DNA of 64,000 nt from an uncultured virus (IMG/VR IMGVR_UViG_3300050343_000139). Its lineage: Duplodnaviria > Heunggongvirae > Uroviricota > Caudoviricetes. Shown piece after piece: positions 1 to 31,184 of this stretch. The stretch lies in IMG/VR virus record IMGVR_UViG_3300050343_000139, one strand, 5' to 3'. Made by a program: the position numbers and the translations under genes. The number at the start of each line of letters is the position of its first letter. Within the stretch, counting starts at the first letter, position 1. The notes beneath the pieces are model-generated. The model saw only the letters and a list, made by a program, of their open reading frames with translations, searched no databases and had not been told where the DNA came from.

Positions 1-2
1 AG

Positions 3-188
3 TTTGAAGAACAAAAATATTCAACATGGGCTTTAATAAATGCAGTAAGTAATTATGAACAGTGGGTCGCACCAGTTCGTAAAATTACACATGAAGAAAG
101 AATTGCTAATAAAACTATTAATGGAACACAATCTCCAAAGTTAGATACAACATACAAAATGTTGAACTCAATGGAGTTGTTAGTATGA
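3..188 (+). CDS. 3' end of DUF932-like protein (partial)
   Basis: Own translation FEEQKYSTWALINAVSNYEQWVAPVR...ELLV*; the TW-L-NAV--YE-W pattern resembles DUF932 C-termini; the stop overlaps the next ATG. Confidence 0.5.
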   Translation, partial: FEEQKYSTWALINAVSNYEQWVAPVRKITHEERIANKTINGTQSPKLDTTYKMLNSMELLV

Positions 189-517
189 CAAGTAGATGGG
201 ACATTATTAGAGATTTTTCTAGAGCAAACAAGATACCTTTGAATGCTAATACTAGAAATAACGCTACACACATAGCAATGGCTTGTTTAAATGCAGGTCT
301 TTCAGAAGAAGAGACCAAAAAAATAGCTATATCTAGTGCAAATATATTTAAAGAAATGTCTATAGATACAGATTCACAAAGTTTAAAAAGAGAATTTGAT
401 TCTAATGTTTACTTTGATACTGTCATAAGTATATATACATTTTTATTTACAGAAGCTATGTTTGGTGAAAGTCAATTAGCTTCAGATTTAATGAAGAATT
501 ATGGAAATGATGTGTAA
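185..517 (+). CDS. hypothetical protein
   Basis: 110-aa ORF coupled by an ATGA overlap to the upstream gene. Confidence 0.7.
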   Translation: MTSRWDIIRDFSRANKIPLNANTRNNATHIAMACLNAGLSEEETKKIAISSANIFKEMSIDTDSQSLKREFDSNVYFDTVISIYTFLFTEAMFGESQLASDLMKNYGNDV

Positions 518-541
518 CGTTTATGAAGCTTAAGAGTCTAA
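514..541 (+). promoter_or_regulatory. variant of the ECF-type promoter motif (GTAACG-N16-GTCTAA)
   Basis: One mismatch and a 1-nt shorter spacer relative to the three GTAACC-N17-GTCTAA copies; lies upstream of the 637/SSB operon. Confidence 0.4.
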
Positions 542-636
542 AAGGTAACAGTATTAATAGGACTAATAATTTAATCGCAGGTTATAGTCGAGATAATTCG
601 GTCATTTTATTAGTTGGTATAAGGATAAAATAGATT

Positions 637-1185
637 ATGGAAACAAATGGTAATGAAGTAAATTTAGATGTCATACTATCCAAGCAAGATTGGGTAACTG
701 TAGTACAATGGGTCTCCGTAAGGTGGCCCGTAAATTGGTCAGATGATGACATCGTAAGTCTATATGAAGATTATAAAGTGTTCCCCAAAGATGTAGTTTG
801 GAAATCTTTATTTAATTATTTAAATGGAGGGCATGAATTCTTTAACTCTCCTAAGTTTTTTCAGTTGTGTCATGAGACTTGGCTAAGACTTGAAAAAGAA
901 GGCGAAAGCAACAAAGCTTTACCTATGGGTAAAGTTGCTGATGCTAACGCAAATGGCTTACTGCAATTCTTACTAATCAATGGTTACGATAGTGTAAGGC
1001 ATGCTGCTTATGACTTCTCACAACAGAGAGTCAAGAGTGGTAAAGCAGTGGGTAATGAATCAGAGATTATAGACCCAGACGAACCTTGGGAATCAGCACA
1101 GAAATGGTTTGAGTTTCCATGGAACAGAACAGTCGAACAACTAAAAGCAAAATCAGAATCACAGGAGGATTCAAATGGCAAGTAA
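637..1185 (+). CDS. hypothetical protein, possibly a replication (helicase loader/inhibitor-like) protein
   Basis: 182-aa ORF directly before ssb; function guessed only from position and helical N-terminus. Confidence 0.55.
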   Translation: METNGNEVNLDVILSKQDWVTVVQWVSVRWPVNWSDDDIVSLYEDYKVFPKDVVWKSLFNYLNGGHEFFNSPKFFQLCHETWLRLEKEGESNKALPMGKVADANANGLLQFLLINGYDSVRHAAYDFSQQRVKSGKAVGNESEIIDPDEPWESAQKWFEFPWNRTVEQLKAKSESQEDSNGK

Positions 1186-1660
1186 CAATGCAATAACAAT
1201 TACTGGTAACATGATGGAACCAGAAGTAAGAAATACATCAACTGGTAAATCAATAGCTTCAGCTCGCATGGTTGTAAAAACTTATGGAGATAAAGAAGAT
1301 ATGTGGGTAACAGTTAAAATGTGGGAGAATCTAGCAACTAATGTAGCTAACTCATTCCCAACTGGAACAAAAACTATGAGAGTTTCTGTTACAGGCAGAC
1401 TGACAGAAGAAAAATGGACTGACAAAGAAGGCAATGAAAAAACACAGATGACTGTGACTGCTGACAATGTAGCAGTTTGTTTAGACTGGCAGACTGTGAG
1501 TGGTATTCAGTATCAAGGAGAAACAGGTAAAGATAATGTTTCTTATGCAAACAAAACTCAAATGGCGGCAGACATTTTAGGTGCAGCACCTGTTGCAAAG
1601 CCTATGAGTGATGTTAGTACAAATCCTAATACAGGAGAGGTACAGGAAGCACCATTCTAA
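1175..1660 (+). CDS. ssb: single-stranded DNA-binding protein
   Basis: ITITGN...PEVR...W..V..W..LA...V.V.GRL..EKWTDKEG OB-fold pattern; acidic C-terminal tip EAPF. Confidence 0.92.
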   Translation: MASNNAITITGNMMEPEVRNTSTGKSIASARMVVKTYGDKEDMWVTVKMWENLATNVANSFPTGTKTMRVSVTGRLTEEKWTDKEGNEKTQMTVTADNVAVCLDWQTVSGIQYQGETGKDNVSYANKTQMAADILGAAPVAKPMSDVSTNPNTGEVQEAPF

Positions 1661-1980
1661 TGACAATGAGTAGTAAACTTAGTGATTGGCTAGAAGACGA
1701 GGAGCAGATAGATGTTTCAAAGCGTCCTACTGTCTCTACACAAGCAGAAAAGTTTACACATTTTAACCAACAGGAGAAGGTAGAGTATTTATTGCTTACT
1801 TCTCCTGTAGGCGTTTGTCATAATGAATTTATGGCTCATTACATACCAAGATTCGGAGCATTAATATGGAAGCTTCGACATGAAAAAAACTGGATTATTG
1901 ACAAGATAAGATGTAGTCAAGAGGAACACAATCATCAAAGTCCTCAATATTTATATAAATTTATGGGAAGAGAGATATGA
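1660..1980 (+). CDS. hypothetical protein (possible winged HTH)
   Basis: 106 aa, TAATG-coupled to ssb; IPRFGALIWKLR...W.I pattern. Confidence 0.6.
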   Translation: MTMSSKLSDWLEDEEQIDVSKRPTVSTQAEKFTHFNQQEKVEYLLLTSPVGVCHNEFMAHYIPRFGALIWKLRHEKNWIIDKIRCSQEEHNHQSPQYLYKFMGREI

Positions 1981-2139
1981 AATTTTTAGAAGAGATAAAA
2001 AATCGTTACACATCATATAAAGAAATAAGAGCATACGAATTAAAAAAAAGTAAAGAGTTGCTTTGGGTTTCTGAACAAGAAGAGTTAGATAATATTCTTG
2101 GTACGGATTATGCAAAAGACTTAAAGGAAGGAACAAACA

Positions 2140-2337
2140 GTGAGTAATTTATATCAAACTGGTACTAAATCATATAACTCAAGAAAAAGTAAGGTATACG
2201 CAAAAGGTAGATTATGCAAAGATGAATCATGTAATAAAACTCTTAGCATCTATAACAGAAAAGAGTATTGCTATACACATACTCCTATAAGTTATGGAAG
2301 AAACAGAGGATGGAAAGACCCTACTCTGGATTTATAA
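2140..2337 (+). CDS. small zinc-binding protein
   Basis: C-x4-C...LSIYN...C-x2-H motif; GGAAGGA SD before a GTG start. Confidence 0.65.
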   Translation: MSNLYQTGTKSYNSRKSKVYAKGRLCKDESCNKTLSIYNRKEYCYTHTPISYGRNRGWKDPTLDL

Positions 2338-2445
2338 TGAAAAGAATAAGAAAATTTTTATGGTATTTAGTCGACATTACTTATGGATATGAAGCTAGAA
2401 TGAAATGGTTTCGTAATGAAATCAAAAAAAGATTATAAGTAACTA

Positions 2446-2525
2446 GGGCTCGTTATTGGAATAGACTTAAACTTGTATGGTGTACATTGTGTTAGGTAAC
2501 GAGGGTTCGAGTCCCTCCGAGTCCA
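2446..2525 (+). ncRNA. tmRNA-like tRNA-like-domain RNA lacking the mRNA (tag) domain
   Basis: Acceptor stem GGGCTCG/CGAGTCC with G3-U70 and discriminator A; T-arm GAGGG-TTCGAGT-CCCTC; stemless D-loop TTATTGGAATAGAC; only a ~30-nt hairpin between; CCA not encoded. Confidence 0.8.
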
Positions 2526-2557
2526 CTGGTAAGTGATAGAAATATTATTTAAATTAT

Positions 2558-2592
2558 GTAACCTTTTTATAGATTGCATAGTCTAAGTATTG
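2558..2592 (+). promoter_or_regulatory. ECF-sigma-type promoter motif GTAACC-N17-GTCTAAGTATTG
   Basis: Same boxes and spacing at 4627-4661(-) and 10789-10817(-); followed by an SD and ATG at 2607. Confidence 0.7.
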
Positions 2593-2606
2593 TAGGAAGG
2601 AATTTA

Positions 2607-2798
2607 ATGCAAGAAATATACAAATATAAAAATCCCGATAGAAAACAATTAACAAACGACTTAGCAGTGACGTTTCGTTTTGCAGATGATACTGAATTAT
2701 CTGATGCTGAGGCGTATGTAATGTCTTTACTTGTTCAAGTAGGTAAAGAAGTTGAATACAGTTTTGATATGTGGACAACTAGAGAGGAAACAGATTAA
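2607..2798 (+). CDS. hypothetical protein
   Basis: Start re-assigned to ATG 2607 after the AGGAAGG SD. Confidence 0.65.
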   Translation: MQEIYKYKNPDRKQLTNDLAVTFRFADDTELSDAEAYVMSLLVQVGKEVEYSFDMWTTREETD

Positions 2799-2986
2799 TG
2801 AATAAAATAAAACGTAAAGCTAGTGAGCTTTGTCTAACGATATTAGAAAAGTATGACTCACGAGACAGTATTGCAAAAGTAATAATTTATAAAGTGACTA
2901 CAAAAATTTTTAATAAACTTTTTTGGTCTTTAAATAACTACAGTCCTTACGACTATGTAAGAAACGGAGAGGTAGAAGAAGTATGA
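2798..2986 (+). CDS. hypothetical protein
   Basis: Translationally coupled at both ends. Confidence 0.6.
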   Translation: MNKIKRKASELCLTILEKYDSRDSIAKVIIYKVTTKIFNKLFWSLNNYSPYDYVRNGEVEEV

Positions 2987-3684
2987 ACAAACAACGATTA
3001 GTTAAAAGTTTTCAAGAAGACAGAGAATCTTACAAGCACATGACTCAAGAAATGAATGACAATATAGGGGTCTCCCCATCTCCTTTAATTTCTTTTTACA
3101 AAAAAAATAAATCTCAGTCTGATTTAGTAATTATATTTCCAAATGATATGGATAAAGACAAAAAAGAATCACTTTATGCAAGTGGCGCTATGGCTAATAT
3201 AATTTTTGAATTTGACTACCTGTCAATTTTTAGCGACGCTTTTGTACGAAAGTTTGATAAAGATGAAGATGTGCAAAATCTTACTGAGTCTTTATCAGAA
3301 GACATAAACTCTGAAGAGTTGGTAATGGGAATGTTGCTAAATAAAGATGGTATCGTATATTCATCTTTTGATAAGTATGGTCGAGATGATAATGGTAAAC
3401 TACTCTATACTGAATCTAAATTAGAGAAAGATAATAAAAATCAAGGTGGTGTCATGTCAGAAATACTTTTGCATTCATTTAATAGAGGTAGAGAAATTAT
3501 GGATGAAATGAGAAAGGAAGATGATTTTGATTCTAAAATGCTTGTTCAACAAACTTTTGATGCTTTAACTGAATTAGGATTTAAAATAGGAATGAGTCCA
3601 GATTTTAGTAAAAACTTGTTTGAACAAGGTATGATAGATGAAGAGGGTGAATGCAATTGTTCATCTGGAGACTGTAATGACTAA
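2983..3684 (+). CDS. hypothetical acidic protein
   Basis: 233-aa ORF, coupled; C-terminal CNC..C. Confidence 0.75.
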   Translation: MNKQRLVKSFQEDRESYKHMTQEMNDNIGVSPSPLISFYKKNKSQSDLVIIFPNDMDKDKKESLYASGAMANIIFEFDYLSIFSDAFVRKFDKDEDVQNLTESLSEDINSEELVMGMLLNKDGIVYSSFDKYGRDDNGKLLYTESKLEKDNKNQGGVMSEILLHSFNRGREIMDEMRKEDDFDSKMLVQQTFDALTELGFKIGMSPDFSKNLFEQGMIDEEGECNCSSGDCND

Positions 3685-4303
3685 AATACACATTGAGTAC
3701 AGGAACATTAAAGAAATTTCTGGTGCTGATTTAAACCCTAAAGACCATGATATAGGTACTCTTTACAACAGTATTAACAGATTTGGATTTACCAATCCTC
3801 TATTAATTAATAAAGCTACTAATAAATTATTAGCAGGTCATGGTCGATTAATTACGCTTCTACAAATGCAACAAGCAGGAGACCCAGCTCCAGACAGAAT
3901 AGTAGACACAGGTGCGGAATGGCAAGTCCCTGTGTATTTAATAGACATAAAAGATGATGCTGAGGCACAAGCATATTTGATTGCTGACAATAGACTTACT
4001 GAACTTGGCGGTTGGAAGAATGATGAGTTACTAATCTCCTTAAAAGACATAGTTGAAGAAACAGGTAGTCTTGATGGTGTCGGATGGGACTTAGAAGACA
4101 TAGATGACTTAATGCAAACTTTTGATGAGGAAGACGATACAGAAGAAGTAACCGAAGTACCAATCAGAGTTGGTAAATACAAATTTAAAGTTTCTCAAGA
4201 AGCATACGAAGAATGGTGTATTTTAGTACAAAGCCAAGTAGGTAAAGATAAGGAAGATATACTTGACTGGATTACACAACAGCTTGAAATAGAAAGACTA
4301 TAA
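3677..4303 (+). CDS. ParB/Srx-like N-terminal domain protein
   Basis: NPKDHD...SINRFGFTNPLLIN...LAGHGRL...YLIADNRLTELGGW motifs; probable start at MTKIH. Confidence 0.85.
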   Translation: MTKIHIEYRNIKEISGADLNPKDHDIGTLYNSINRFGFTNPLLINKATNKLLAGHGRLITLLQMQQAGDPAPDRIVDTGAEWQVPVYLIDIKDDAEAQAYLIADNRLTELGGWKNDELLISLKDIVEETGSLDGVGWDLEDIDDLMQTFDEEDDTEEVTEVPIRVGKYKFKVSQEAYEEWCILVQSQVGKDKEDILDWITQQLEIERL

Positions 4304-4395
4304 CCAAGTATCCTCTCTATCTTGTTTTATATCACTCCACAAATCTTCCGCGCTAGCAAAAACAATTGCTATGCATATTAATAGTATTACTAACA

Positions 4396-4605
4396 TTATT
4401 TTACCTCTACACTTTCTGTAATTACAAATCCGTCATATTCTTTGTCTACATTACTTGGATTAATCCCATAGTAGAATATGTCATCATCTTCATAACCTTT
4501 AGGTAAGTCGTCAGTATCATCGCCTTCAAAGATTAGGTAATCTTCAAATGGGTAATCTTCCCCTTCGGGCGTATAGTAACCAGATACTCTAAACAATTTA
4601 TACAT
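4396..4605 (-). CDS. small acidic hypothetical protein
   Basis: MYKLFRV... after AGAAAG SD; D/E-rich; directly downstream of the promoter motif. Confidence 0.7.
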   Translation of the reverse strand: MYKLFRVSGYYTPEGEDYPFEDYLIFEGDDTDDLPKGYEDDDIFYYGINPSNVDKEYDGFVITESVEVK

Positions 4606-4626
4606 TTTTACACTTTCTGTTGCTTG

Positions 4627-4661
4627 CAATACTTAGACAGCAGGGTGAGCAAAAAGGTTAC
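4627..4661 (-). promoter_or_regulatory. ECF-sigma-type promoter motif
   Basis: Minus strand GTAACC-TTTTTGCTCACCCTGCT-GTCTAAGTATTG. Confidence 0.7.
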
Positions 4662-4918
4662 ACACTTATTTAATTAATAAGACTATTTAATGTGTAGTGA
4701 TTGAGAGAAGGGAGAAGACACCACAACATATTGTGTTTATTGATGAATGTGTAATTGTTAAGCCAGCCAGGATGGAAGAGTGCAAAATACCTAAACCCTA
4801 TAAAAACTGGCTTGTGTGTAAGTTTTAGCAGATGCCTGACCAGATGGGCATCATAACTCATTTACCAAATCTTTATATAGAAATGAACTAAGGAAACCTC
4901 AACGTTTTCAACCTTTTT

Positions 4919-4997
4919 TGCCTACTTATGCCTTACGTTTTGTCGCCACGAAATCCTTGTCTAGTTATGTAAGCTGGTCTGCCTACTTATGCCTTAC
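4919..4997. repeat. 18-bp direct repeat TGCCTACTTATGCCTTAC (x2)
   Basis: Exact copies at 4919-4936 and 4980-4997. Confidence 0.9.
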
Positions 4998-5006
4998 ATT
5001 ATTAGC

Positions 5007-5055
5007 TTAAGCTATAACAAGCGGTGCACTTTCATACACCGCCTATATAGTTTAA
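5007..5055 (-). other. long RNA hairpin with GAAA tetraloop (processing or termination signal)
   Basis: TTAAACTATATAGGCGGTGTAT-GAAA-GTGCACCGCTTGTTATAGCTTAA; G-U pairs form only on the minus strand. Confidence 0.7.
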
Positions 5056-5056
5056 T

Positions 5057-5176
5057 CTACTTAGCTTTACGTTCTACTTCCCAGAAAAGCAATACACCCA
5101 TAAATATGATGAATGCAAAAGGTAGTAGTAGCGTAAGAAGTACTACAGTTATATAACTAAGTACTAGTTCTTGCAT
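5057..5176 (-). CDS. small membrane protein (39 aa)
   Basis: MQELVLSYITVVLLTLLLPFAFIIFMGVLLFWEVERKAK; TAATG-coupled to the amidoligase. Confidence 0.65.
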   Translation of the reverse strand: MQELVLSYITVVLLTLLLPFAFIIFMGVLLFWEVERKAK

Positions 5177-6285
5177 TAAACCCCTTCCACTACGCTTATC
5201 AATTCGTCGGTTAGAATATTTTCCAAAGCATCAGTATCTTCTTCGTCAAGTACTGGACCTTGAATATTTATTCTATCTCTGTATCTGTCAAGATAACTCT
5301 TAAGATTTGAATACCTGTCACCTTTTGAAACAAGGAACCCAAAGTAATCACTTAGTGATGTTGCTAAGTGCAGCATATCAGAAGCATCGTAATCATTGCT
5401 TGTTATATACTTTACAAACTCAAACGTAGAGTCAGCAAACTCTAGGTTCTTAAGTATTCTATGCTCAAGCATGTTGGCCTTGAAGAACCTTAACTCTAGA
5501 GTAGGTCTGTTCTGATAGTTGACATACTTGTATCTAGTACCACCATGGTCCACTCTATCAATTGCTACCTGTGCTAACTGATGTTTAGCTCCTGTACCAT
5601 ATGATGGTTTTTCGAATCTTGCCCAACTGTTGAACTCACGTTGTCCAATAAGTGTAAGCACGTTTCCGAACTTCTGATGTCTGACACTTGCTGTACCTAA
5701 CATGTCCATGAAGAACATCCATAGATATAGCTGAGCATTTGTGAATGCACCTTTTGGTATGTGTATGTGCATACCTGTAGTGCTTCTTTGATACCCAGCT
5801 AAAGCATCATTGTACTTGTCAAATACATAACCAACACCTTTGTGTACTTCCAATGTCATTGGCTGAGTAACAAACTCCACACCATTATCAAGAGAACTAT
5901 CAGTCTTTGCATATAGCAAGTGTGGTACTAGATTGTTTATCTTCGCTGTTACGTCGTTTGCATAGGTATTCAATCTATGGACGTAATACTTAGAGCCCAT
6001 TGTTTTATTTTGCTCGTAGAGAAATTCTTCTACTCTCTCATCAACATCATAACAATCGTGCCTCTTCTCAAGTTCTAACTCGAAACCCATAGGTACTCCT
6101 TGTGTATCTATGAACTTACTGTTTACTTTTGTCGGAGAGGTCCAGCTTTCTAGCATCTGTTCTCCTCCAACAAAGAAGTAGTCTGGTCTGTAACTATAAC
6201 CGTGAATTGAAGTATCACTGTTATAGGTTAGTTGTCTTTGTATTTGTGCTTTTCTATCTTCACTTAGTCTATTTTCTAATAACAT
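5176..6285 (-). CDS. COOH-NH2 ligase type 2 (amidoligase), paralogue B
   Basis: GFELELE, KTDSSLDNGVEFVTQP, TGMHIHI, RYKYVN, TLELRFF motifs. Confidence 0.85.
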   Translation of the reverse strand: MLLENRLSEDRKAQIQRQLTYNSDTSIHGYSYRPDYFFVGGEQMLESWTSPTKVNSKFIDTQGVPMGFELELEKRHDCYDVDERVEEFLYEQNKTMGSKYYVHRLNTYANDVTAKINNLVPHLLYAKTDSSLDNGVEFVTQPMTLEVHKGVGYVFDKYNDALAGYQRSTTGMHIHIPKGAFTNAQLYLWMFFMDMLGTASVRHQKFGNVLTLIGQREFNSWARFEKPSYGTGAKHQLAQVAIDRVDHGGTRYKYVNYQNRPTLELRFFKANMLEHRILKNLEFADSTFEFVKYITSNDYDASDMLHLATSLSDYFGFLVSKGDRYSNLKSYLDRYRDRINIQGPVLDEEDTDALENILTDELISVVEGV

Positions 6286-6297
6286 ATCGTCCTTTCT

Positions 6298-6669
6298 TTA
6301 TATAGTTACTGCTGATTCAATTTCAAAATCATTAGCATCGTGGTCGTCGTATTCAATATCGTCGTTATAGTCGTCGAATTCCATCTCTCTTGCCATATCT
6401 TCTGCAAGACTTTCAAGGTCATATCTATTTCTAATCTCGTACTCTATATAATTAGCATGCTCGATTATCTCTGATATAGGTAAATCCAAAGACCTGGTCT
6501 CACTGTACATTGCGATACCACTAACTCTTTCAGTTACCCTCACAGTAGTGCCAGTTTCAAAAGGTAAGTTACCTTCATCTATCTGTCTAAAGGTATGACC
6601 ATCTTCGTCGACTGCTATTTCTCTTTCGTCTATCACAAAATTAGGCTTGTTCCAATCTGGTACTGCCAT
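6298..6669 (-). CDS. acidic protein, MAVP-W-N family copy 1
   Basis: Very D/E-rich; N-terminus MAVPDWN. Confidence 0.75.
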   Translation of the reverse strand: MAVPDWNKPNFVIDEREIAVDEDGHTFRQIDEGNLPFETGTTVRVTERVSGIAMYSETRSLDLPISEIIEHANYIEYEIRNRYDLESLAEDMAREMEFDDYNDDIEYDDHDANDFEIESAVTI

Positions 6670-6812
6670 TATTCCTCCTCATCAAATATCTCAACTTCAA
6701 GATTTTCTCCAAAGTTTTGATACATCTTTCTTATTTCGTATAATGCGTTTTGTTCATCATCAGCATAAACAGTTATATCTTTTGATATACTTGCGTAAAA
6801 TAACTTAGGCAT
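6669..6812 (-). CDS. small hypothetical protein (47 aa)
   Basis: MPKLFYASISKDITVYADDEQNA...; TAATG overlaps at both ends. Confidence 0.6.
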   Translation of the reverse strand: MPKLFYASISKDITVYADDEQNALYEIRKMYQNFGENLEVEIFDEEE

Positions 6813-7045
6813 TATTTATCCTCCTTTATAAGTTCTGTCCATCCAGATTGTAAGAACTGAACGTCATCAACTAAACTAGTCGAATAACAATCAGCTGATG
6901 AATCAAGTTCTTCTACTATATCAAGCACTTCGTATTCACCATCTTCAATAACGGCTTCTTTACTTTCTGCTTCTACAAGTACTACACGAACACCTCTAAC
7001 GTCTTCACGGTATTCTTCCTGTACTAGATATCTACTCATAGGCAT
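6812..7045 (-). CDS. small acidic hypothetical protein
   Basis: V.VEAESKE.. motif; coupled. Confidence 0.7.
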   Translation of the reverse strand: MPMSRYLVQEEYREDVRGVRVVLVEAESKEAVIEDGEYEVLDIVEELDSSADCYSTSLVDDVQFLQSGWTELIKEDK

Positions 7046-7187
7046 TATTCATTGTCCTTTCTATCTCTATTCATAAACGATTCGTCTATGACTGAGTCAA
7101 AGGTATCATCGTACCCTTGACTTTTGATATTGTTTATTTTTTGTTCTGCTTTGAACAAGTTTATTAAGTAACCCATTGGGCTCCTTT

Positions 7188-7574
7188 CTATGCTCCCTCG
7201 AGCATGTTGTCTACTTCTTCAGGTGTAACACTTGCACCCTGACTGTTGTATAGATTAATTTCGTTCATGGTTATGTCCTCACTATCGTGGTCGTGAAAGT
7301 TTTCTTCAGTAAGTTCATAGTCGTATACAATACCTTCGTCATATATGTACTGGAGTATTGCATCCTGCATATCAGTGTAGTTTTGAGGGTTGTCATCCGT
7401 ATCCGATTCTATGTCTGGAAATATATCACTTAAAGTTATATCGAGATGACCATGTCTAACGTAGGTAGCTGTACCCTCGTCACGTACTTCAACATTTATT
7501 GTGCCATCTGCTAATAACTTTATTCCTTCTATATCACGTTTTACTAATTCTAAATTCCATTTTGGAACTGCCAT
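7188..7574 (-). CDS. acidic protein, MAVP-W-N family copy 2
   Basis: N-terminus MAVPKWN; GAAAGGA SD. Confidence 0.75.
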   Translation of the reverse strand: MAVPKWNLELVKRDIEGIKLLADGTINVEVRDEGTATYVRHGHLDITLSDIFPDIESDTDDNPQNYTDMQDAILQYIYDEGIVYDYELTEENFHDHDSEDITMNEINLYNSQGASVTPEEVDNMLEGA

Positions 7575-7597
7575 ATTTATATCCTTTCCGCTAGAGA

Positions 7598-8581
7598 CTA
7601 CTTAGAGTCTCTAGCTATTTTATCTACATCGATTCTTACATCGCATGAATCCATTTGCCATTCTTGGTCGTCATACTCTGAACCAAGTCCTAACATTTCT
7701 GTAGCCCAACAGTCACTTAGACACGCTCTTTTTGTGTCTGTACTTACTGCCTCACCACAAGCTAAGCAAACAAAGTCACCTGTTACTGGATTGACTTCCA
7801 TCTCATATTCAATAAGCATGTCTTCTACATCCTTGAACCCAGTGTAATCTAGCATTGCATTGACTGACTCAACAAAGGTCGGGTCAGTATACAGTTCTGG
7901 ATTGACCATGTACCCTTTATCAGTACTACTTGTTAGGTCTAACTGATATCGTGATGAAGACTTGGTCTTTCTTTTAGTTGTCTTGTAGTTTGTTTTGCCA
8001 CCACCGAATACAAAACTCTGCGTTGGTAGGTGATGTGTGTTTGAATACCATACACCATTTTCCCAACTGCCTTGTCGTTCGTTGATTATGTAAGATTCTT
8101 TACGTAACTTAGCATTGGTTGATAGTATTACCAGCTTGTTGAAGCCAATAATCTCACCCAATTGCTCACGGAATCCTTCGTCATCGAACGCCACTGGCTT
8201 CACATACTGCAAATATACTTGGTTAAAGTATCTTGTGTCAGACAAGTCTGACTTAGCAGATGGATGAAAGTGGTTAGGCAATATACCGTTGTGTGCGAAC
8301 ACTGTATGTGGGTCAATCCAAAATGGATGATTGTTATCCATACATACAGAACCGTGAGTCGCAATACGCATGTGGATAAGCATGTCATGATTACCATGCT
8401 TTTTACTTATCACTTTGTATTGTGCTAACAGTTCTTTCTCATCCATAGATTTGAATACCTCAATCTTGTCTGAGTCTGTAATGTAAGCGATACCGCCACC
8501 GTCTGGGTTTCTACTCCACATTTGTTCGAACGTCTTGTCGTCTATTGTTTTTCCTGCAGGAATACTTGCTATTACACACAT
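7598..8581 (-). CDS. class II (Ntn) glutamine amidotransferase
   Basis: True start MCVIA (N-terminal Cys) after AGAAAGGA; NPDGGG, HMRIATHG, NNHPF, HNGIL, SDT motifs; C-terminal CxxC..CxxxC. Confidence 0.9.
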   Translation of the reverse strand: MCVIASIPAGKTIDDKTFEQMWSRNPDGGGIAYITDSDKIEVFKSMDEKELLAQYKVISKKHGNHDMLIHMRIATHGSVCMDNNHPFWIDPHTVFAHNGILPNHFHPSAKSDLSDTRYFNQVYLQYVKPVAFDDEGFREQLGEIIGFNKLVILSTNAKLRKESYIINERQGSWENGVWYSNTHHLPTQSFVFGGGKTNYKTTKRKTKSSSRYQLDLTSSTDKGYMVNPELYTDPTFVESVNAMLDYTGFKDVEDMLIEYEMEVNPVTGDFVCLACGEAVSTDTKRACLSDCWATEMLGLGSEYDDQEWQMDSCDVRIDVDKIARDSK

Positions 8582-8585
8582 ATTA

Positions 8586-10721
8586 TTATCCTGTCCTTTC
8601 TTGTTTGTCGTTTGTTGTTTCTTGTACATAAGTGCGTGCTATGCCATTCAAGTCATACCAGGCTTTTGTACTCTTTGTAAAGTCATAGTTATATGTTTCG
8701 CGCTCTATTGCAGCAGCAATTAAGTTACGAAGTTGGTCATATCTTTTATGACTATGTTTTCTAGCAAACTCATCTGTTGTGCTTGCTACTGTAATCCACC
8801 CAAGTAAGATGTCCCCAGCATTACATTGAATCTCGTTAATGATATCAACTAATGCAAAGGGTGGTTTATCATTTTCATAATCCCAATCTTTAAATGGATG
8901 TCCATACGCTTTGGCTATATCCCACATAGCACCTACGAATTGTGCTTTGCCTAAGATACCATTGCGTCCTGTGTTACCTTGGAAGTATCTCAACTCCATA
9001 GTCTCGTCATGGAGTGTATTGAGTCCCATGTACTTAGCGTTATATGCTGGACTTGTTTGTTTCTCATTAAGACCTACATTAAATACAGCATGCTTTGCTT
9101 TCCACAAGCTACCCTCATCGTCTGCCACTCTATCTTCATAAGTTATCCTATCCCATCTTGCATAACTCACAGATGGTCTTTGGGTTATAGTTTGGAATAG
9201 AGGCTTGTAAAGTGGGTGGTTAACCATTGTGTCAAGCAACTCAAGGAATATCCATCGTTCAACAACTATCAATGATTCCCATGGTACGTGTATATGGATA
9301 CCACATCTGTCATCATTCAGTGCTCGAAAGTTATCCTTAAGATAATTCCAGAATACATCTGGGACTTCGTTATTCCAATAATCTAAAGACAATGGCATTG
9401 AAACATACTCAGTACCTTTATAACTATCAAGGCTACCGTCATCTTTCCTAAATAAGAGTTGGTGTGGTCCTTGTTGTCTATAGTTGTTTGGATAATCCAT
9501 TGGATGAAACAGTCTTACTGCTTTCTCCATCACACTTTGTATGTTACTTTGGTCTGCTCTATCTTCTCTGATAGTTACTTCTAATTCCATACCCAAGAAC
9601 GGTCCGCATCTCGTTTGGAAATTCATACCAGCATCAGCAGTTGTGCTGACTGACTGAAGCTCAGAACCAGGGTGACCAGCATTGTGTGTGTAGTAAAACG
9701 ATGGTCTGTAATTCCAACTATGTGAATGTACTTCGAATGGATACTCGAAGTTAATTGATTCACCTAGAGTTAGACTCTCTCCATCTATTAGGTATATAAC
9801 TAAGTCCATGTTTCTTCTCATGAACCTACCTACATTATTACTACCCCAAGAAGTTTTATCTTCTTGCATTACACGCTGACTATCTACAGATTCTTGTACA
9901 CCTGGTCTGACTATTAAGTAATCAAACTTAGATGCGTTGGTTTCATCTATAGGTACTTCAAAGTGTGCTATATCTTGTACCGCTAAGTGATTGACACATG
10001 CGTCACAAAGGTTCTTTGCACGACTCCAGTTCTTATAGTTCTGTCTTGGTCTCATATCCTTGACAGGTACCATTCTTGACCTAGGTTTGTCATACAAACT
10101 ACAGTTGTAGCATCTTGTATAGTTCCTATCCTCAGACAGTGCACTTCGTCCACTGTAGCTTGTAAGGTAGAACTGACCATCAGGTCTAGAAAAAGACCAC
10201 ATTGTTGAGTGTCTATGGAACCTATCTCTGCACAACAATTTTGGAATACCATTTAGTAATACAAACCAGTTGTCCTGAGTTTGTGCCCATGACTCATCAT
10301 CTGCAAGAACCATAATAAACAAACTATGTTTGTTCATATTTAAGTCCCTGTAGTCTGATTGATTACCCCATGATATGTTGTCTAACTTTAACTTACGTGA
10401 AACAACGCTTATCACTTCGTAAAGGTCATCATCGTCAATGTTCCATACATGATTCTCGTACATGTATCTATGGTCACTCCACTGTTGTATATTGGCTCGG
10501 ATATCTTGTGTAACTTGTCTTGTTGCATCATCCCAACCTCTATACCTACTGAAGAGCCAAACAATTTGACCTATTGGTATTTCTATAATCTCTAACGAGT
10601 CTGTTAGATTTGTATTGAATCTCGTACCATCATCGAGTCTATTTGGTATTCGCTCGGTGAAGTTAGGGATTCTATTCTTTAAGGACTCTAAGTCCTCATG
10701 AAAAATGAGTTTTTGTCTCAT
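8586..10721 (-). CDS. COOH-NH2 ligase type 2 (amidoligase), paralogue A, with long N-terminal and Zn-finger region
   Basis: GMELEV, KDDGSL, EYVSMP, CGIHIHV, KYMGLN, TMELRYFQG; CYNC...CDAC upstream. Confidence 0.85.
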   Translation of the reverse strand: MRQKLIFHEDLESLKNRIPNFTERIPNRLDDGTRFNTNLTDSLEIIEIPIGQIVWLFSRYRGWDDATRQVTQDIRANIQQWSDHRYMYENHVWNIDDDDLYEVISVVSRKLKLDNISWGNQSDYRDLNMNKHSLFIMVLADDESWAQTQDNWFVLLNGIPKLLCRDRFHRHSTMWSFSRPDGQFYLTSYSGRSALSEDRNYTRCYNCSLYDKPRSRMVPVKDMRPRQNYKNWSRAKNLCDACVNHLAVQDIAHFEVPIDETNASKFDYLIVRPGVQESVDSQRVMQEDKTSWGSNNVGRFMRRNMDLVIYLIDGESLTLGESINFEYPFEVHSHSWNYRPSFYYTHNAGHPGSELQSVSTTADAGMNFQTRCGPFLGMELEVTIREDRADQSNIQSVMEKAVRLFHPMDYPNNYRQQGPHQLLFRKDDGSLDSYKGTEYVSMPLSLDYWNNEVPDVFWNYLKDNFRALNDDRCGIHIHVPWESLIVVERWIFLELLDTMVNHPLYKPLFQTITQRPSVSYARWDRITYEDRVADDEGSLWKAKHAVFNVGLNEKQTSPAYNAKYMGLNTLHDETMELRYFQGNTGRNGILGKAQFVGAMWDIAKAYGHPFKDWDYENDKPPFALVDIINEIQCNAGDILLGWITVASTTDEFARKHSHKRYDQLRNLIAAAIERETYNYDFTKSTKAWYDLNGIARTYVQETTNDKQERTG

Positions 10722-13965: not shown

Positions 13966-14421
13966 ATGGGTAGAAAAAGTAAAATATCCCCCAATCTTAT
14001 AGAGGATGTGTGTAATTGGCTTAAATTAGGCTATTATCAGGAAGATGCAGCTGTTATGGCTGGTATTTCCCCCTCTACCTTCTATGAATGGATGAAGAAG
14101 GGTGACGAAATGGACGACATTATAGAGGAAGATAAAGCCCTACCGTCTCCAGACTCTTCCTTACCAGCAACACAGGAGGCTGTAAAGATTGAGGTTGTTA
14201 ACATGTACTCGGAGTTTTCGGAGGCAGTAAAGCGAGCGCGAGCTGAAGCCGAGGGTGCTCACATACGTAATATCAGGCGAGCTGCAGATAATGGCAGCTG
14301 GCAAGCCAGTGCGTGGTGGTTAGAGCGAAGTTTTCCTAAGAAATGGGGTAAGAGGTCAGCCATAGAGATAGGCGGGGAGGGTGGAGAGCCAATCAAGTTT
14401 AGCGTTGAGTACGGCGACTAA
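13966..14421 (+). CDS. terminase small subunit-like protein
   Basis: MGRKSK, HTH (AAVMAGISPSTFYEW), FSEAVKRARAEAE, WQASAWWLER..P..WG, C-terminal G..GEPIK; extended -10 TGTTAAAAT just upstream. Confidence 0.8.
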   Translation: MGRKSKISPNLIEDVCNWLKLGYYQEDAAVMAGISPSTFYEWMKKGDEMDDIIEEDKALPSPDSSLPATQEAVKIEVVNMYSEFSEAVKRARAEAEGAHIRNIRRAADNGSWQASAWWLERSFPKKWGKRSAIEIGGEGGEPIKFSVEYGD

Positions 14422-22984: not shown

Positions 22985-23383
22985 TTAAGGCTCTATTATA
23001 TTTTCGTGCGAAGCGAGAATATCTTTACCTATCTCTTTCATTTTAGCACGAATACCTGTGGCTGATATCTTTTGTATTTCATCTGGTAGTACAATCTCTT
23101 CTATTGCATAACCTACACCACGACCATAACTTATGTTGGTAATGTTAGGTACTAGCTGTACTACAAACTTACCTTCATACTCTGGAATAAGTGCTTCTTC
23201 AATCTTTTCTTTTACGAAATCAAAGTCAAATGGATTACTATCGTCAGTGCCACCAGTGTCTCTGACCATAATACATACTTGACCTGTTTTCTTTAAAGCT
23301 TCTTTAAATAGAGCTAAGTGACCATCGTGAAATGGTTGCCATCTACCAAGCATTTGTACTGTAGGTTTTTTAGGGTCAAACAT
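22985..23383 (-). CDS. HIGH-superfamily nucleotidyltransferase
   Basis: GRWQPFHDGH, NPF, YGR.VGY, ISATGIR motifs. Confidence 0.85.
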   Translation of the reverse strand: MFDPKKPTVQMLGRWQPFHDGHLALFKEALKKTGQVCIMVRDTGGTDDSNPFDFDFVKEKIEEALIPEYEGKFVVQLVPNITNISYGRGVGYAIEEIVLPDEIQKISATGIRAKMKEIGKDILASHENIIEP

Positions 23384-23817
23384 TACTCTTCTTCTTGGTT
23401 AAGTAATTTGTAAGCTACTTCTTCTAAAATGTCATCTACTTGTTCCCAATCAGTAATGGTATAAGTAGGTTTTTTTAATGGTTCTTCAAAAGCTTTATTT
23501 GTATCTTCGTACGGAGACTCTTCTATAGTATTTACATATATAGTCATATCCCATTGAGGCATTTCTCTATAGACATTAAAGGGACAAACAAAATCAACAA
23601 TAGTGTTAAAACCATCTGCTTCATTTAGTTTACCTATGGCAGACATTCTTAAAGCTTGTCTTTGTCTAGCCTGTGGAGTAAACTCCCAGTCTCCAAATGC
23701 TTCCCTTACTTTATCAGCATTTACATGTCTGATTACACCAGTACCTACTTTATCTACAAGCTTTGAAGCAAATGTAGATTTACCAGATGTTGGTAGTCCA
23801 TAAATTAATATATTCAT
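23383..23817 (-). CDS. adenylylsulfate (APS) kinase-like P-loop kinase
   Basis: GLPTSGKST, NAD.VR, D..F....R.RQ, DFVCP, FEEP. Confidence 0.8.
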   Translation of the reverse strand: MNILIYGLPTSGKSTFASKLVDKVGTGVIRHVNADKVREAFGDWEFTPQARQRQALRMSAIGKLNEADGFNTIVDFVCPFNVYREMPQWDMTIYVNTIEESPYEDTNKAFEEPLKKPTYTITDWEQVDDILEEVAYKLLNQEEE

Positions 23818-24635
23818 TTATTATATTTCTCCTCTAATTGTTCTGGTGTGTATATAAGTTCATTCATATTCAACCATCTATTATATATATTCTTAGGAAA
23901 TAAAAACTCTATATCATGAGTTGATTTTTCTATAGAACCTTCTTTAAGCTTATGTAGGTTCGTACCTACTCTTGTATCATTGTACTTTTGACCTTCAAAT
24001 TCAAACTGCTTTATGTTTTCATAATCGTGGTCAAATTTCTCTACCTCTAAAAAGTTATACAGATTGTTTATTACATTTTCTGTATCACCAGTTAAATCTT
24101 TGTAGTCTATATACATAACATCAATATCATTCTTTTCTTCTAAATACTTTTGATATGTGTAAATCATTCTTGCTGATGTCTGAACATTTCCATACTGTGA
24201 CAAGTAAGACATAACATCTTCTGGTTTACGAGATGTTACATTTGTATATATAAAGTTATCTACATTCTCGTTTGCCCACTTAATAAAGCTAGCAAACACT
24301 TCAAATATATCTCTTTGTAAAATTATAACTTTAGGGTTGTCAGAAAGTCTTTTAACAACTTCTGGAAACCATTGACCTCTATCTATAATATTACTTGCTT
24401 TGTAATCTGAATACCAAGCCTGTGCAGTTTTTCTTGCTAATGTGTCTTGTTCTGAAGACCAATCAAAATTTTCCCAAGTTTCACCTTCAAATGATTGATG
24501 AAGAGTACTTACTGTTCTACTTAAAGGACTTAAGGGGCTAACTTGTAAGTCTGGATTTTGATTGATTATGCCACCTAATACTGTGTTACCAGCACGAGGC
24601 ATACCAACTAAATGAAATATATTTTTGTCCACCAT
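23814..24635 (-). CDS. sulfotransferase family protein
   Basis: GMPRAGNT (5'-PSB loop), I.NQNP, R...EV.AS (3'-PB), Y.DL......I..LYNFL. Confidence 0.85.
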   Translation of the reverse strand: MVDKNIFHLVGMPRAGNTVLGGIINQNPDLQVSPLSPLSRTVSTLHQSFEGETWENFDWSSEQDTLARKTAQAWYSDYKASNIIDRGQWFPEVVKRLSDNPKVIILQRDIFEVFASFIKWANENVDNFIYTNVTSRKPEDVMSYLSQYGNVQTSARMIYTYQKYLEEKNDIDVMYIDYKDLTGDTENVINNLYNFLEVEKFDHDYENIKQFEFEGQKYNDTRVGTNLHKLKEGSIEKSTHDIEFLFPKNIYNRWLNMNELIYTPEQLEEKYNK

Positions 24636-28141: not shown

Positions 28142-29023
28142 CTAACTAAAAACTATAGTTCCCGCTGTTCCACCTTTAATGTGGATGTAATTTTGTCCAC
28201 TATAAGTACCTTGGGTAACAGTTAAGTTGGTTGCTGTACAAGTATATGTAGTGGGAAATAAAATATAGACAAATCCAGAACCACCAGAATTATTATGTCC
28301 TTCTGATGCACCATGTGCTCTATTGGCTGCATTACCAGCTGTACCGTAAGCTACATGATACCCTAATGCGTTGATAGTACCAGAACCAGAGCCACCACCT
28401 GCACCTGGAGGTGGATTACCATTAGAAAAACCAGAACCTCTATTACCTTTACTACCACCATTACCAGCAGAGGTCCAACCACTTGGTACTGTTTGTGAAG
28501 GCTGACTTGCAGAACCACCATTGTAACCGTGACTATCATAAGGACGAATATTAGCAAATACTGTTCCACCTCCACCACCAGAGCCACCATTACCACCGGT
28601 ACCGTTTCCTTGATGATTACCAGAACCGTTACCGCCTTTACCTCCGCCTTTACAAGTTAGTGTTGAACCATCTATAGCTAAAGTTGTGTCTCCACCAGTA
28701 GATTGACCACCGCCACCATTACCTATAGTTACGGAGTAACTAATACCTGGGTAAAATATGTCACCATTACCAGTTATGTAGCCACCTCCGCCGCCACCAG
28801 CTCCACGAAAATAACCCCAACCAGAGTGTCCTTGACCTGCACCGCCGCCACCACCGCCTGCAGCCATATAAACAGTAGCTGGTACAACATTAAATTTTTT
28901 CCATTTTTCTTCGGCAACAAGTATAGCTACTTCATTAATATCAAATACACCACTGTTTTCAGTAGCTGTTTGAGTTACATCTTTTACTTTTGTACCTATG
29001 TGACCGAATCTTCTTCTACCCAT
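28142..29023 (-). CDS. glycine-rich adhesin-like protein 6
   Basis: AAGGGGGG...GGGGGG...GGSG.V.I...GT.VFS. Confidence 0.8.
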   Translation of the reverse strand: MGRRRFGHIGTKVKDVTQTATENSGVFDINEVAILVAEEKWKKFNVVPATVYMAAGGGGGGAGQGHSGWGYFRGAGGGGGGYITGNGDIFYPGISYSVTIGNGGGGQSTGGDTTLAIDGSTLTCKGGGKGGNGSGNHQGNGTGGNGGSGGGGGTVFANIRPYDSHGYNGGSASQPSQTVPSGWTSAGNGGSKGNRGSGFSNGNPPPGAGGGSGSGTINALGYHVAYGTAGNAANRAHGASEGHNNSGGSGFVYILFPTTYTCTATNLTVTQGTYSGQNYIHIKGGTAGTIVFS

Positions 29024-29360: not shown

Positions 29361-29741
29361 TTAATCTCCTAATGCGATTATTATTCCGATTGATGCACCT
29401 TTATTTGCATCAACATACGCTTTTACTGATTGTTGCGAGGGTACAGAGGTAGCCGAATCAGAACTCATATTGTCTTCATCTATTAATGTTAATGTAGTAT
29501 CAGTGTCTGTATCTACATCACCCCAAGCAGAACCATTATAAATTTGAATTTTATTTGTTGTTTCATTGTATATTATTTCACCAGCAGAAGCAGAGTATGC
29601 ATTTCGTTCTGTTGTAGAAAATTTAGGCAATTGTATTCCAGAGGCTCCTGTTTCAGAACCGTCAAAAAACTCTGCAATACCATCACTGTTATTACTCTCA
29701 AATCTTACTCTTATAGGTCTATTTCCGTATGTTGTACTCAT
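29361..29741 (-). CDS. fibre adaptor protein
   Basis: RPIRV...G.AEF head, TT.R..GEIIYN module, QQSVKAYVD, C-terminal IIIALG. Confidence 0.65.
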   Translation of the reverse strand: MSTTYGNRPIRVRFESNNSDGIAEFFDGSETGASGIQLPKFSTTERNAYSASAGEIIYNETTNKIQIYNGSAWGDVDTDTDTTLTLIDEDNMSSDSATSVPSQQSVKAYVDANKGASIGIIIALGD

Positions 29742-30736
29742 TACCAGCTCACACTTCCTGTTCCACTTGTTAAAGTGGTAATATTATATCCACCAGAATT
29801 ACTTGTAGTTCCCTGTATACCTGTAAGTGATATTGTGTAACTATCGGGATATTTAATTATAATAACTCCACTTCCTCCACCACCACCAGAATTAGAACCA
29901 TTGTTAGCACCGTTTCCACCATTACCTCTATTAGTTGTTCCAGATACACCAGCATTTATAAAATTAGAAGTTCCTTGACCATAGCCACCTTCTGCATAAG
30001 TAACAGAAGTACCCGAAATATTATTAGCTCTACCAACTCCTCTAGTTCTACCCGATGCTGCACCACCTGCACCACCACCACCTCCGCCTGCAAAGTTACC
30101 TGCATTACCATCATTTTTACTACCACCTGCGTTACCAAAACCAGACCAAGTATATGAGCTTACACTTCTATCTGTCTGTGTAGCTGTACCAGCAGCACCA
30201 CCATTTGAACCCGAAGCACCACCAGCAGAACCACCCGAAGATATAGTTGTATTGCTATCATCAGCATCTCTACCAGCACCACCACCATCTGCTGTAAAAC
30301 CGTTAAAAGATGTATCAGTACCTTTTGCACCAGCGCTACCTTGACTACCACCAGAGCCTCCACCACCTACAGAACAATTATAAGATGTACCACTATTCAC
30401 TAAATAAGAAAGTCCTTCTAATATACCACCAGCTCCTCCACCACCGCCACCAGCTACTCCATCTGAAGAAGAACCGCCACCACCGCCACCTCCTGCAACA
30501 AGTAAAAAATCTGCATTAAAATTAAATGTACTGCCAGACATACCTGCCCAAGAAGAACCATTATATATTTTGATAGTTCCTAAATCTGAATCATAAACTG
30601 TATCGCCAGCAGACATACCTGTAAGTGCATTTATTTGTGAAGTTGTGTAACTCTTTAACCTAAGTGAATTAGATAAAGCAATACCGTTACCAGTAGTCTT
30701 TTCTGATATGTTATCTACTTTTAGTTCACTAGCCAT
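29741..30736 (-). CDS. glycine-rich adhesin-like protein 5
   Basis: Shared N-module plus poly-Gly domain. Confidence 0.8.
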   Translation of the reverse strand: MASELKVDNISEKTTGNGIALSNSLRLKSYTTSQINALTGMSAGDTVYDSDLGTIKIYNGSSWAGMSGSTFNFNADFLLVAGGGGGGGSSSDGVAGGGGGGAGGILEGLSYLVNSGTSYNCSVGGGGSGGSQGSAGAKGTDTSFNGFTADGGGAGRDADDSNTTISSGGSAGGASGSNGGAAGTATQTDRSVSSYTWSGFGNAGGSKNDGNAGNFAGGGGGGAGGAASGRTRGVGRANNISGTSVTYAEGGYGQGTSNFINAGVSGTTNRGNGGNGANNGSNSGGGGGSGVIIIKYPDSYTISLTGIQGTTSNSGGYNITTLTSGTGSVSW

Positions 30737-31133
30737 TGACTAATTCCCAACCTTCAGAATTGTCACCGTTGTAAGCGTTCTCGTTCCATATATATGCTTC
30801 GCCATCATCTGGATAAGCATTTGGAGCTTCCCATACATAGTCGTCACTAAGTGTCCAACTATCATATGGTTTCGCTGGGTAAAAAGCATCTTCGTCTTCA
30901 TCATAAGTGAATCCGATTCCTGCATAGTTACCGCGATACGGTGTTCCTTCTAAGGTATGAGAATTGCCAACAGTGTTGTAAGAAGTTCTTTTGCAAGTTT
31001 GTCCACGAAAATCTGCATACCATGCTTCCCAGCTATCAAAGCCTTCTGGAAGTGTATCGGTATCAGACTCGTCTTTACCTACAATAACTTCAGTTACTAT
31101 ATTGTTGTCGTTAAGAAAGGCGTAATGTGCCAT
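30729..31133 (-). CDS. MAHYA-type tail fibre-associated protein (copy 1)
   Basis: Paralogue of 27696-28133. Confidence 0.75.
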   Translation of the reverse strand: MAHYAFLNDNNIVTEVIVGKDESDTDTLPEGFDSWEAWYADFRGQTCKRTSYNTVGNSHTLEGTPYRGNYAGIGFTYDEDEDAFYPAKPYDSWTLSDDYVWEAPNAYPDDGEAYIWNENAYNGDNSEGWELVNG

Positions 31134-31184
31134 ATTATTCTCCTATCGTATGTATTGTAATCGGTGTTTTAAAATTCTCTGTCA

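Follow-up and report, generated by a model that had tools for sequence, protein, structure and literature searches.

A tmRNA-like element in a tailed phage genome

The 64,000-nt IMG/VR record IMGVR_UViG_3300050343_000139, which is the whole stretch of DNA analysed here and is referred to as the window, carries on its + strand at positions 2446-2525 an 80-nt element that resembles transfer-messenger RNA's (tmRNA's) tRNA-like domain (TLD) with a hairpin in place of the messenger part. Gene calls with PHROGs and Pfam identify the window as belonging to a tailed phage, and the runs from which this phage was recovered are seawater and viral metagenomes. The element is flanked by small + strand open reading frames (ORFs), with the gene for SSB upstream (1175-1660) and a gene for a ParB-like protein downstream (3638-4303); the DNA directly upstream of it is coding. 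It is thus located in the replication-gene region of a 64-kb window that has no tRNA gene at all.

The acceptor stem opens with the 5' strand GGGCUCG (2446-2452, G3 at 2448; model positions 1-7), which is paired in the minimum free energy (MFE) fold. An unpaired analogue of the D-loop follows, UUAUUGGAAUAG (2453-2464), inside which the motif GGAAUAGAC (2458-2466) begins, as seen in both the sequence and the family alignment. When compared to the Rfam tmRNA consensus GGaUUCGAC, this motif agrees at GGA and GAC and differs in the middle from the usual UUC. A capped P2-like hairpin (2465-2497) then replaces the pseudoknots and the tag domain of a tmRNA. It consists of the stem ACUUAAAC/GU-UUAGGU, an inner stem UGUAU/GUACA and the loop GGU. 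The linker AAC (2498-2500) leads to the T-arm GAGGG-UUCGAGU-CCCUC (2501-2517), on which the sequence, the fold, the tmRNA match and the covariance model agree, and together with the preceding GGU it forms the junction GGUAAC, a site that reads GGAC in tmRNA and in the majority of family members. The element ends with the 3' strand of the acceptor stem, CGAGUCC (U70 at 2522), and the discriminator base A2525, which corresponds to A73 (2518-2525). Within the 7-bp acceptor stem, G2448 and U2522 form the G3:U70 wobble. The bases directly after A2525 are CUG, and CCA is not encoded. Inspection of the hairpin for a tag frame gave nothing tag-like, stop triplets being located inside or at the foot of the stem.

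An unconstrained MFE calculation returned exactly this architecture, at -24.0 kcal/mol. By itself this energy stands out only slightly (z = -2.10; an equally good fold is reached by 10 of 200 shuffled sequences), and the case against chance therefore rests on the covariance-model match, on the complete conservation of the element between diverged flanks and on compensatory changes, all of which are described below. A first-pass annotation, made from the sequence alone, had placed the acceptor stem with its G3-U70 pair, the T-arm and the stemless GG..GAC D-loop at these same positions and had remarked on the absence of a 7-nt anticodon loop; sequence and fold confirm this, the single hairpin being closed by GGU. 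That annotation had also described a hairpin of about 30 nt followed by a UAAC linker. The architecture holds, and the dimensions need correction to a 33-nt hairpin and an AAC linker because U2497 pairs with A2465 in the MFE fold.

Assignment to an RNA class

ARAGORN called neither a tRNA nor a tmRNA gene in the window, and no Rfam family reached its gathering score. At relaxed thresholds the best family was tmRNA (RF00023) with 28.2 bits (E-value 2.2e-10; gathering score 47), in a local match that covers only model positions 291-374 and is cut off at the 5' end of the model. Inclusion of the upstream DNA lowered the tmRNA score to 24.3 bits, so that no messenger domain is hidden upstream.

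Several classes were considered and set aside. A tmRNA proper would need more than the 33 nt between D-loop and linker, all of which are hairpin, with no resume codon, tag frame, stop codon or pseudoknots PK1-PK4. A two-piece (permuted) tmRNA does not agree with the standard 5' to 3' order of the parts; the tmRNA_permuted model scored 13.5 bits on the T-arm only, and ARAGORN reported none. For a tRNA-Ala, the D-stem and the 7-nt anticodon loop are missing, the latter being replaced by a single hairpin with a 3-nt loop, and the Rfam tRNA score remained below threshold. As to an attachment-site fragment of ssrA, both halves of the TLD are present and the scanned ORFs of the window include no integrase. 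We also scanned one genome for each of 185,579 species with a pattern of the 3' end and found that none of the 111 matching loci lies in a tmRNA (75 are tRNA-Ala, 24 are other tRNAs and 12 were not called), in a scan that required exact words and in which the host may be unsampled. The first-pass annotation had named a conventional tRNA fold and an attP relic of a host ssrA as outcomes that would speak against its reading; Rfam and ARAGORN gave no such fold, and neither an integrase in the window nor an ssrA with the 3' end of the element among the 111 loci was encountered. A lack of conservation, which it had likewise named, is contradicted by the strong conservation described below.

What the element does share, it shares with the TLD-only tmRNA of Mycobacterium phage DS6A, a form also called 'CDS-less' (lacking a coding sequence): the G3:U70 pair and A73, the stemless GG...GAC loop, a capped P2 hairpin, a length of 80 nt where about 65-85 nt is expected, and, with a modest margin, recognition by a covariance model above the tRNA background. 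We are confident that the element is a gene for a TLD-only tmRNA.

A family of viral elements

Two scans of viral contigs were performed with a motif that combined the D-loop word, a gap of the length expected without a messenger part, the T-loop and a ..UCCA end. They returned at least 37 distinct sequences, the window included, in which six or more of the seven acceptor pairs are formed and position 3 is G. Among the matches listed, 13 of the 37 are ordinary tRNAs according to ARAGORN, while 24 (the window and 23 others) have no anticodon arm. Many of these 23 listed matches follow the pattern GGGGnnn-nnnn-GGAUUCGAC-hairpin-GGAC-T-arm-nnnnUCCA, which amounts to the Rfam tmRNA consensus reduced to its two ends and bridged by a hairpin.

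From five viral elements other than that of the window we built a covariance model, R1, whose structure comprises six P2 pairs in addition to the acceptor stem and the T-arm. The five-sequence seed and model-based alignments were preferred to a MAFFT alignment of the family, in which unequal D-loop lengths had put the acceptor stem out of place. Searched against the 64 kb, R1 gave a single match up to an E-value of 10, which is the full-length element at 2446-2525 (39.1 bits, E-value 1.3e-7). The DS6A element, which is outside the seed, scored 60.2 bits and clear non-seed members 54-70 bits; the best ARAGORN-confirmed tRNA reached 32.1 bits (63 matches in 100 loci). In a model alignment of 22 sequences, itself fitted to R1, 96.3% of the cells are paired and 14 of 18 pairs have changed on both sides; the covariation score of this alignment was reached by none of 500 shuffles, and partners slid out of register pair in 37-57% of cells (maximum 56.8%). 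Lengths in the family alignment A5 range from 69 to 85 nt.

The scans also brought up loci that bear on annotation. ARAGORN calls full-length tmRNAs at L133:1233-1575 and L158:1500-1895, and in both the 3' 80 nt form a complete TLD-only element; the predicted 'tag' of L133 crosses the tRNA-like domain itself, and in neither locus was a tag identified. In G+C-rich phages ARAGORN can thus mis-annotate TLD-only genes as whole tmRNAs. At default thresholds, ARAGORN and Rfam either miss TLD-only genes or, as ARAGORN does in G+C-rich phages, misread them, so that they remain unannotated or are wrongly annotated. As a separate observation, the first motif scan contained at least 50 copies of one 88-nt stretch (GGUAGACGCGCAGAUGGAAGAGAC...GGGUUCGAUUCCCUCC), including those in L015 and L016; among the matches listed, the loci come from several IMG samples, one of them most often.

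Conservation in the immediate lineage

One metagenome scan retrieved the identical 80 nt in three contigs, L359, L360 and L362. L359 represents the same phage (one mismatch in 4422 nt, 99.98% identity). L360 is 96.5% identical to the window upstream of the element and 88.8% downstream, and L362 is 92.4% identical over 1772 nt. In the alignment of the window with L360 and L362, the invariant run on the + strand extends over 2427-2527, which is the element plus 19 nt upstream and 2 nt downstream. The closest variable sites are 2426 and 2528, and variation therefore restarts three bases past the predicted 3' end. Only 25 of 1693 sliding windows of 80 nt are devoid of a variable column, and 22 of these begin at 2427-2448. 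Compared to the window and L362, L360 has an insertion of about 57 nt at window position 2553, a short distance downstream of the element. The RNA gene itself is invariant, while plasticity is seen in the intergenic DNA on its 3' side. Judged from these alignments, the element is under strong purifying selection.

Diverged relatives and their hairpins

A further pattern scan retrieved L363-L367. The L365 acceptor stem differs from that of the window by two compensatory double changes (U5-A68 to G-C and C6-G67 to U-A), and its hairpin is that of the window except for two changes, each of which falls on a base that the fold leaves unpaired. L364 and L366/L367 keep GGGCGUG, GGAUAGAC, UAAC, the T-stem and a matching 3' strand, and have different hairpin sequences. 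L358 and L363, which are mutually syntenic, represent a second group that has the acceptor stem and T-arm in common and differs in the hairpin. When folded alone, the elements of the window, L365, L364, L366 and L358 each give the same succession of acceptor stem, unpaired loop, a single long hairpin, a linker of 3 nt and T-arm. In the nine-row set of relatives 95.5% of cells are paired, and 10 of 18 pairs have changed on both sides. Since core and fold are kept while the hairpin sequence is replaced, selection acts on the tRNA-like core and on the shape of the hairpin, not on its sequence.

The neighbouring genes provide a measure of the distances involved. An amidoligase-like protein encoded downstream of the element is the sole neighbour that the window shares with L364 and L365, at 30-32% identity, and L366 has a homologue of the small ORF 2798-2986 with 42% identity. 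L364 and L365 themselves, with elements at oriented positions 2501-2580 and 2501-2577, respectively, have flanking proteins that are 66-98% identical and hairpin sequences that are unrelated: the hairpin of L365 matches that of the window, and the hairpin of L364 resembles that of L366. The P2 hairpin appears, from these comparisons, to have been exchanged as a cassette between otherwise close phages.

The G3:U70 pair and A73 are retained in the window, L364, L365, L366/L367, L363 and L358. In two further relatives of the marine subfamily, L149:1516-1580 (the same as L224:316-380) and L189:1474-1577, which scored 35.7 and 35.2 bits on R1, the acceptor stems are GGACGUG/CACGUCC or GGACGUG/CAUGUCC and have A3-U70 in place of G3:U70. 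Under the classical AlaRS rule, RNAs with A3-U70 would not be charged, and some members of the family may therefore not be chargeable. The first-pass annotation had interpreted the element as a stand-alone phage TLD without a tag and had proposed that homologues be collected from phage contigs. The R1 match, and tmRNA as the best Rfam match at 28.2 bits, are in line with that interpretation, and the homologues show both conservation and covariation.

Surroundings of the element and searches for near relatives

No near relative of the phage was found among 50,697 deposited phage records, in which positions 1-8000 of the window had no megablast match, and a sensitive blastn search with the element found only short T-arm matches covering at most 32% of the query. 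A 17-nt exact-word search of viral contigs gave five matches, all by chance, with the T-arm following the match in 0 of 5. The 233-aa ORF of the window retrieved no relatives as a protein query. The window's SSB retrieved seven loci, which at 27-34% identity were too distant for use, and a translated comparison of the window with the flanks of L149, L189, L358, L154, L064 and L196 revealed no similarity. G001, the nearest record, represents the same phage; it ends at window position 4300 and is uninformative on the element. In a search for the host, the exonuclease homologue had only matches at no more than 33% identity, chiefly to actinobacterial and Staphylococcus phages.

Elsewhere in the window, PHROGs and Pfam identify the small terminase subunit (13966-14421), the tape measure protein (52856-58201), the tail tube protein (58925-59584) and tail fibre proteins. 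Neither SmpB nor an integrase was recognised among the 61 ORFs scanned with Pfam or the 33 scanned with PHROGs, and the same scans recognised no defence or anti-defence gene beside the element. On the - strand, five paralogous ORFs of 331-385 aa are clustered at 29741-36414 with two shorter ORFs interspersed, and each of the five has a Pfam Gly_rich_2 domain and a match to PHROG 2295. Cytidylyltransferase-like, APS-kinase/AAA-like and sulfotransferase ORFs are clustered at 22985-24635 (- strand), possibly as a sulfation or nucleotide-sugar modification module of the phage. An Amidoligase_2-like ORF and an ORF for a class-II glutamine amidotransferase-like protein are located at 5176-6285 and 7598-8629 (- strand), respectively; the first of these is the amidoligase-like gene that L364 and L365 have in common with the window.

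Possible function and alternative explanations

Trans-translation is the main bacterial system for ribosome rescue and protein quality control, and the phage element probably interferes with this rescue-and-tag system of the host. The explanation that we favour, and to which we give somewhat better than even odds as a whole, is that the phage has at 2446-2525 a functional gene for a TLD-only tmRNA that acts by competition for SmpB. The RNA would be co-transcribed with the + strand genes that adjoin it in the replication-gene region, excised like a tRNA by host RNase P and 3' processing enzymes, and provided with CCA by the host CCA-adding enzyme. AlaRS would charge it with alanine by virtue of G3:U70 and A73, and host SmpB would bind it at the D-loop and elbow region. 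Since it has no resume codon, such an RNA could not complete trans-translation; if abundant, it would compete with the host tmRNA for SmpB (and EF-Tu), and truncated phage proteins would thereby escape tagging for proteolysis. A TLD-like molecule is described in PMC4131195 (citing Mao 2009) and in PMC11915505 as strongly inhibiting tmRNA in Escherichia coli irrespective of its ability to be charged, perhaps through titration of SmpB. Taken by itself, the SmpB-competition mechanism seems to us an evenly balanced proposition. The A3-U70 relatives L149/L224 and L189, as far as their acceptor stems can tell, argue that charging is not always needed. If the proposal is correct, phages possess a very small, RNA-only means to stop the tagging of their proteins or to short-cut rescue.

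Several observations weigh against this explanation. The 39.1 bits of the window element are far below the 54-91 bits of the core family and exceed the best tRNA by just 7 bits, which makes it a divergent member. Its GGAAUAGAC D-loop and GGUAAC junction depart from GGAUUCGAC and GGAC, which most members have in common with tmRNA, and this divergence renders SmpB binding less certain. The invariance of G1, G2, G3:U70 and A73 in the family is in part imposed by the search patterns and the filter. Since the window has no SmpB gene, an SmpB of the host has to be assumed, and the inhibition of tmRNA described above is known to us second-hand, through papers that cite Mao 2009. In a promoter and terminator scan, three promoter-like sites were found, compared to 5.6 expected from shuffled sequences, and no + strand terminator was found. 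As to RNA, two metatranscriptome runs of one study contain a 3251-nt L360-like contig at depths of 36 and 40, and a short contig with the L365-type element (86 and 218 nt) at depths of 186 and 167, four to five times those of the L360-like contig. It should be noted that these are contigs assembled from RNA libraries that may contain DNA, and that the breaks may reflect assembly branching at the shared T-arm; they were not counted as evidence for transcription or for RNA ends.

An overlapping explanation, which differs in that the RNA would help rather than block rescue, is productive rescue without tagging. Alanyl-TLD with SmpB and EF-Tu would enter stalled ribosomes and accept the nascent chain, and the peptidyl-TLD would then drop off or be hydrolysed, so that ribosomes on cleaved phage or host mRNAs would be freed with the phage proteins unmarked. 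The retention of G3:U70 in the lineage of the window leaves room for such ribosome entry. A pure SmpB sponge would need neither this pair nor A73, both of which are kept in the relatives listed above, given that the inhibitory TLD is reported to act 'whether or not chargeable' (PMC4131195). Furthermore, a TLD fragment with SmpB is described as active on ribosomes in vitro (PMC3929946), and in mitochondria and some plastids a role in dealing with incomplete mRNAs is ascribed to CDS-less tmRNAs (PMC11915505). Against this, no known release step would act on a peptidyl-TLD that lacks resume and stop codons. The A3-U70 relatives L149/L224 and L189 would moreover remain uncharged by the classical rule. 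Altogether we consider productive rescue unlikely, at roughly one chance in five.

Less likely still is a function unrelated to trans-translation, as a tRNA-shaped decoy or as a processing signal. A decoy could be bait for the SmpB-like SPB domains of CoCoNuT systems, for RNase R or for tRNA nucleases; a processing signal could be a cleavage site for RNase P or RNase Z that punctuates the transcript made from this gene region. The exchange of hairpins between the close phages L364 and L365 would fit a surface involved in an arms race. CoCoNuT systems have SmpB-like domains predicted to bind tmRNA (PMC11090510), and the phage protein AcrIIIA1 is reported to turn tRNA and tmRNA fragments against defence (PMC11662646). 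A processing signal would be compatible with a position between genes of the same strand and with the lack of a clear promoter or terminator of its own. Neither a generic decoy nor a generic signal would need the conserved tmRNA-specific D-loop motif, the absence of the D-stem or the alanine pair, no defence or anti-defence gene was recognised adjacent to the element in the scanned window ORFs, and the idea is conjecture throughout. A version of it, equally improbable and conjectural, would have hairpin swapping in the marine phages serve as a specificity or evasion surface and would have the RNAs act as anti-defence decoys against readers of the tmRNA shape (SmpB-like sensor domains, RNase R, tmRNA-cleaving nucleases) instead of simple SmpB sponges.

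A functionless relic, either a phage tmRNA with an internal deletion or a piece of host ssrA from an attachment site, is very improbable. Marine phages do carry full-length tmRNA genes from which such a relic might arise, as seen in Cellulophaga phage Calle_1 and as reported in PMC9004378. Against it stand the absence of any change in 80 nt where the DNA alongside has diverged by 4-11% in L360 and L362, and the retention of core and fold with compensatory changes where the neighbouring protein is only about 30% identical. An attachment-site fragment contains the 3' part only. Here, both tRNA-like halves are present, the 61 (Pfam) and 33 (PHROGs) scanned ORFs include no recognised integrase, and 0 of 111 loci lie in a tmRNA. 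The relic explanation is, on this pattern of conservation, largely refuted. A tRNA-Ala of aberrant form, its anticodon arm being atypical, would account for the tRNA-like acceptor stem, the T-arm, the 80-nt length and the 75 tRNA-Ala genes among the 111 loci with the 3'-end pattern, but it is barely credible given the negative ARAGORN and Rfam tRNA results, the missing D-stem, the GGU loop where 7 nt belong, and relatives that replace the entire hairpin, which an anticodon arm would not tolerate.

Comparison with known systems

The novelty implied by the first-pass annotation is too high, as a TLD-only phage tmRNA is already in print. Mycobacterium phage DS6A is listed as having a 'TLD only' tmRNA by Hudson, Lau and Williams 2014 (PMC4131195) and appears again under the 'CDS-less' forms in the 2025 tmRNA database paper (PMC11915505). 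Its element is located between protein genes at 28478-28557 of NC_023744 and is not annotated in the RefSeq record. Like that of the window, it is about 80 nt long with the parts in standard order, and combines an acceptor stem of 7 bp (G3:U70, discriminator A73) with a GG..GAC loop that lacks a D-stem, one capped P2 hairpin and a T-arm, while it encodes neither a tag frame nor CCA. Model R1 recognises both, with 60.2 bits for DS6A and 39.1 bits for the window. The two differ in that DS6A has a P2 internal-loop motif GAAAACC and a short CAC junction, whereas the window has GGAAUAGAC, the GGUAAC junction and an A+U-rich hairpin, and also in host, which is a mycobacterium in the case of DS6A and some marine bacterium in that of the window. 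The flanks of the two loci are not known to encode similar proteins. In the literature we found no paper that treats TLD-only RNAs as a phage family or that studies them during infection, and DS6A, mentioned there only briefly, was the sole phage example found.

With bacterial ssrA (RF00023) the element shares its two ends, which correspond to the consensus 5' end GGGGguGAucuGGaUUCGAC and 3' end GGACGcGGGUUCGAuUCCCgCCacCUCCACCA, and the G3:U70 pair; it is about 280 nt shorter and is devoid of the pseudoknots, the resume codon, the tag frame and the encoded CCA. Full-length tmRNA genes are reported in marine phages (PMC9004378). In the deposited record of Cellulophaga phage Calle_1 (L001, MT732432) the tmRNA is annotated at locus positions 1221-1580, and the full-length Rfam match is at 1169-1530 (86.6 bits), which suggests a shift of some 50 nt in the deposited coordinates.

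Engineered TLD fragments, such as that of Thermus thermophilus in which the 5' 25 nt and the 3' 34 nt are joined via UUCG (PDB 2CZJ; PMC3929946), have the same design with a short loop across P2. These fragments are described as binding SmpB in crystals and as functioning with EF-Tu and ribosomes in vitro (PMC3929946), where SmpB and a TLD fragment support polyalanine synthesis (PMC3929946, citing Shimizu and Ueda 2006). They are man-made from bacterial tmRNA, whereas the RNA of the window would be natural and phage-encoded, with a divergent D-loop and junction. The CDS-less tmRNAs found in jakobid mitochondria and in plastids of Mallomonadaceae are natural RNAs that consist of nearly nothing but the TLD and have no tag frame (PMC11915505). 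In these organelles they are the sole tmRNA present and co-occur with a nucleus-encoded SmpB, whereas the phage RNA would have an intact tmRNA of the host alongside it. Presumably they correspond to the mt-tmRNA family of Rfam.

The kind of RNA described here is therefore already known. What is new is a divergent marine subfamily with a GGUAAC junction, its location among replication genes, and a hairpin that can be swapped. To the example of DS6A the window thus adds a divergent marine lineage in which the element itself is clearly under purifying selection and in which the shape of the hairpin, rather than its sequence, seems to be constrained.

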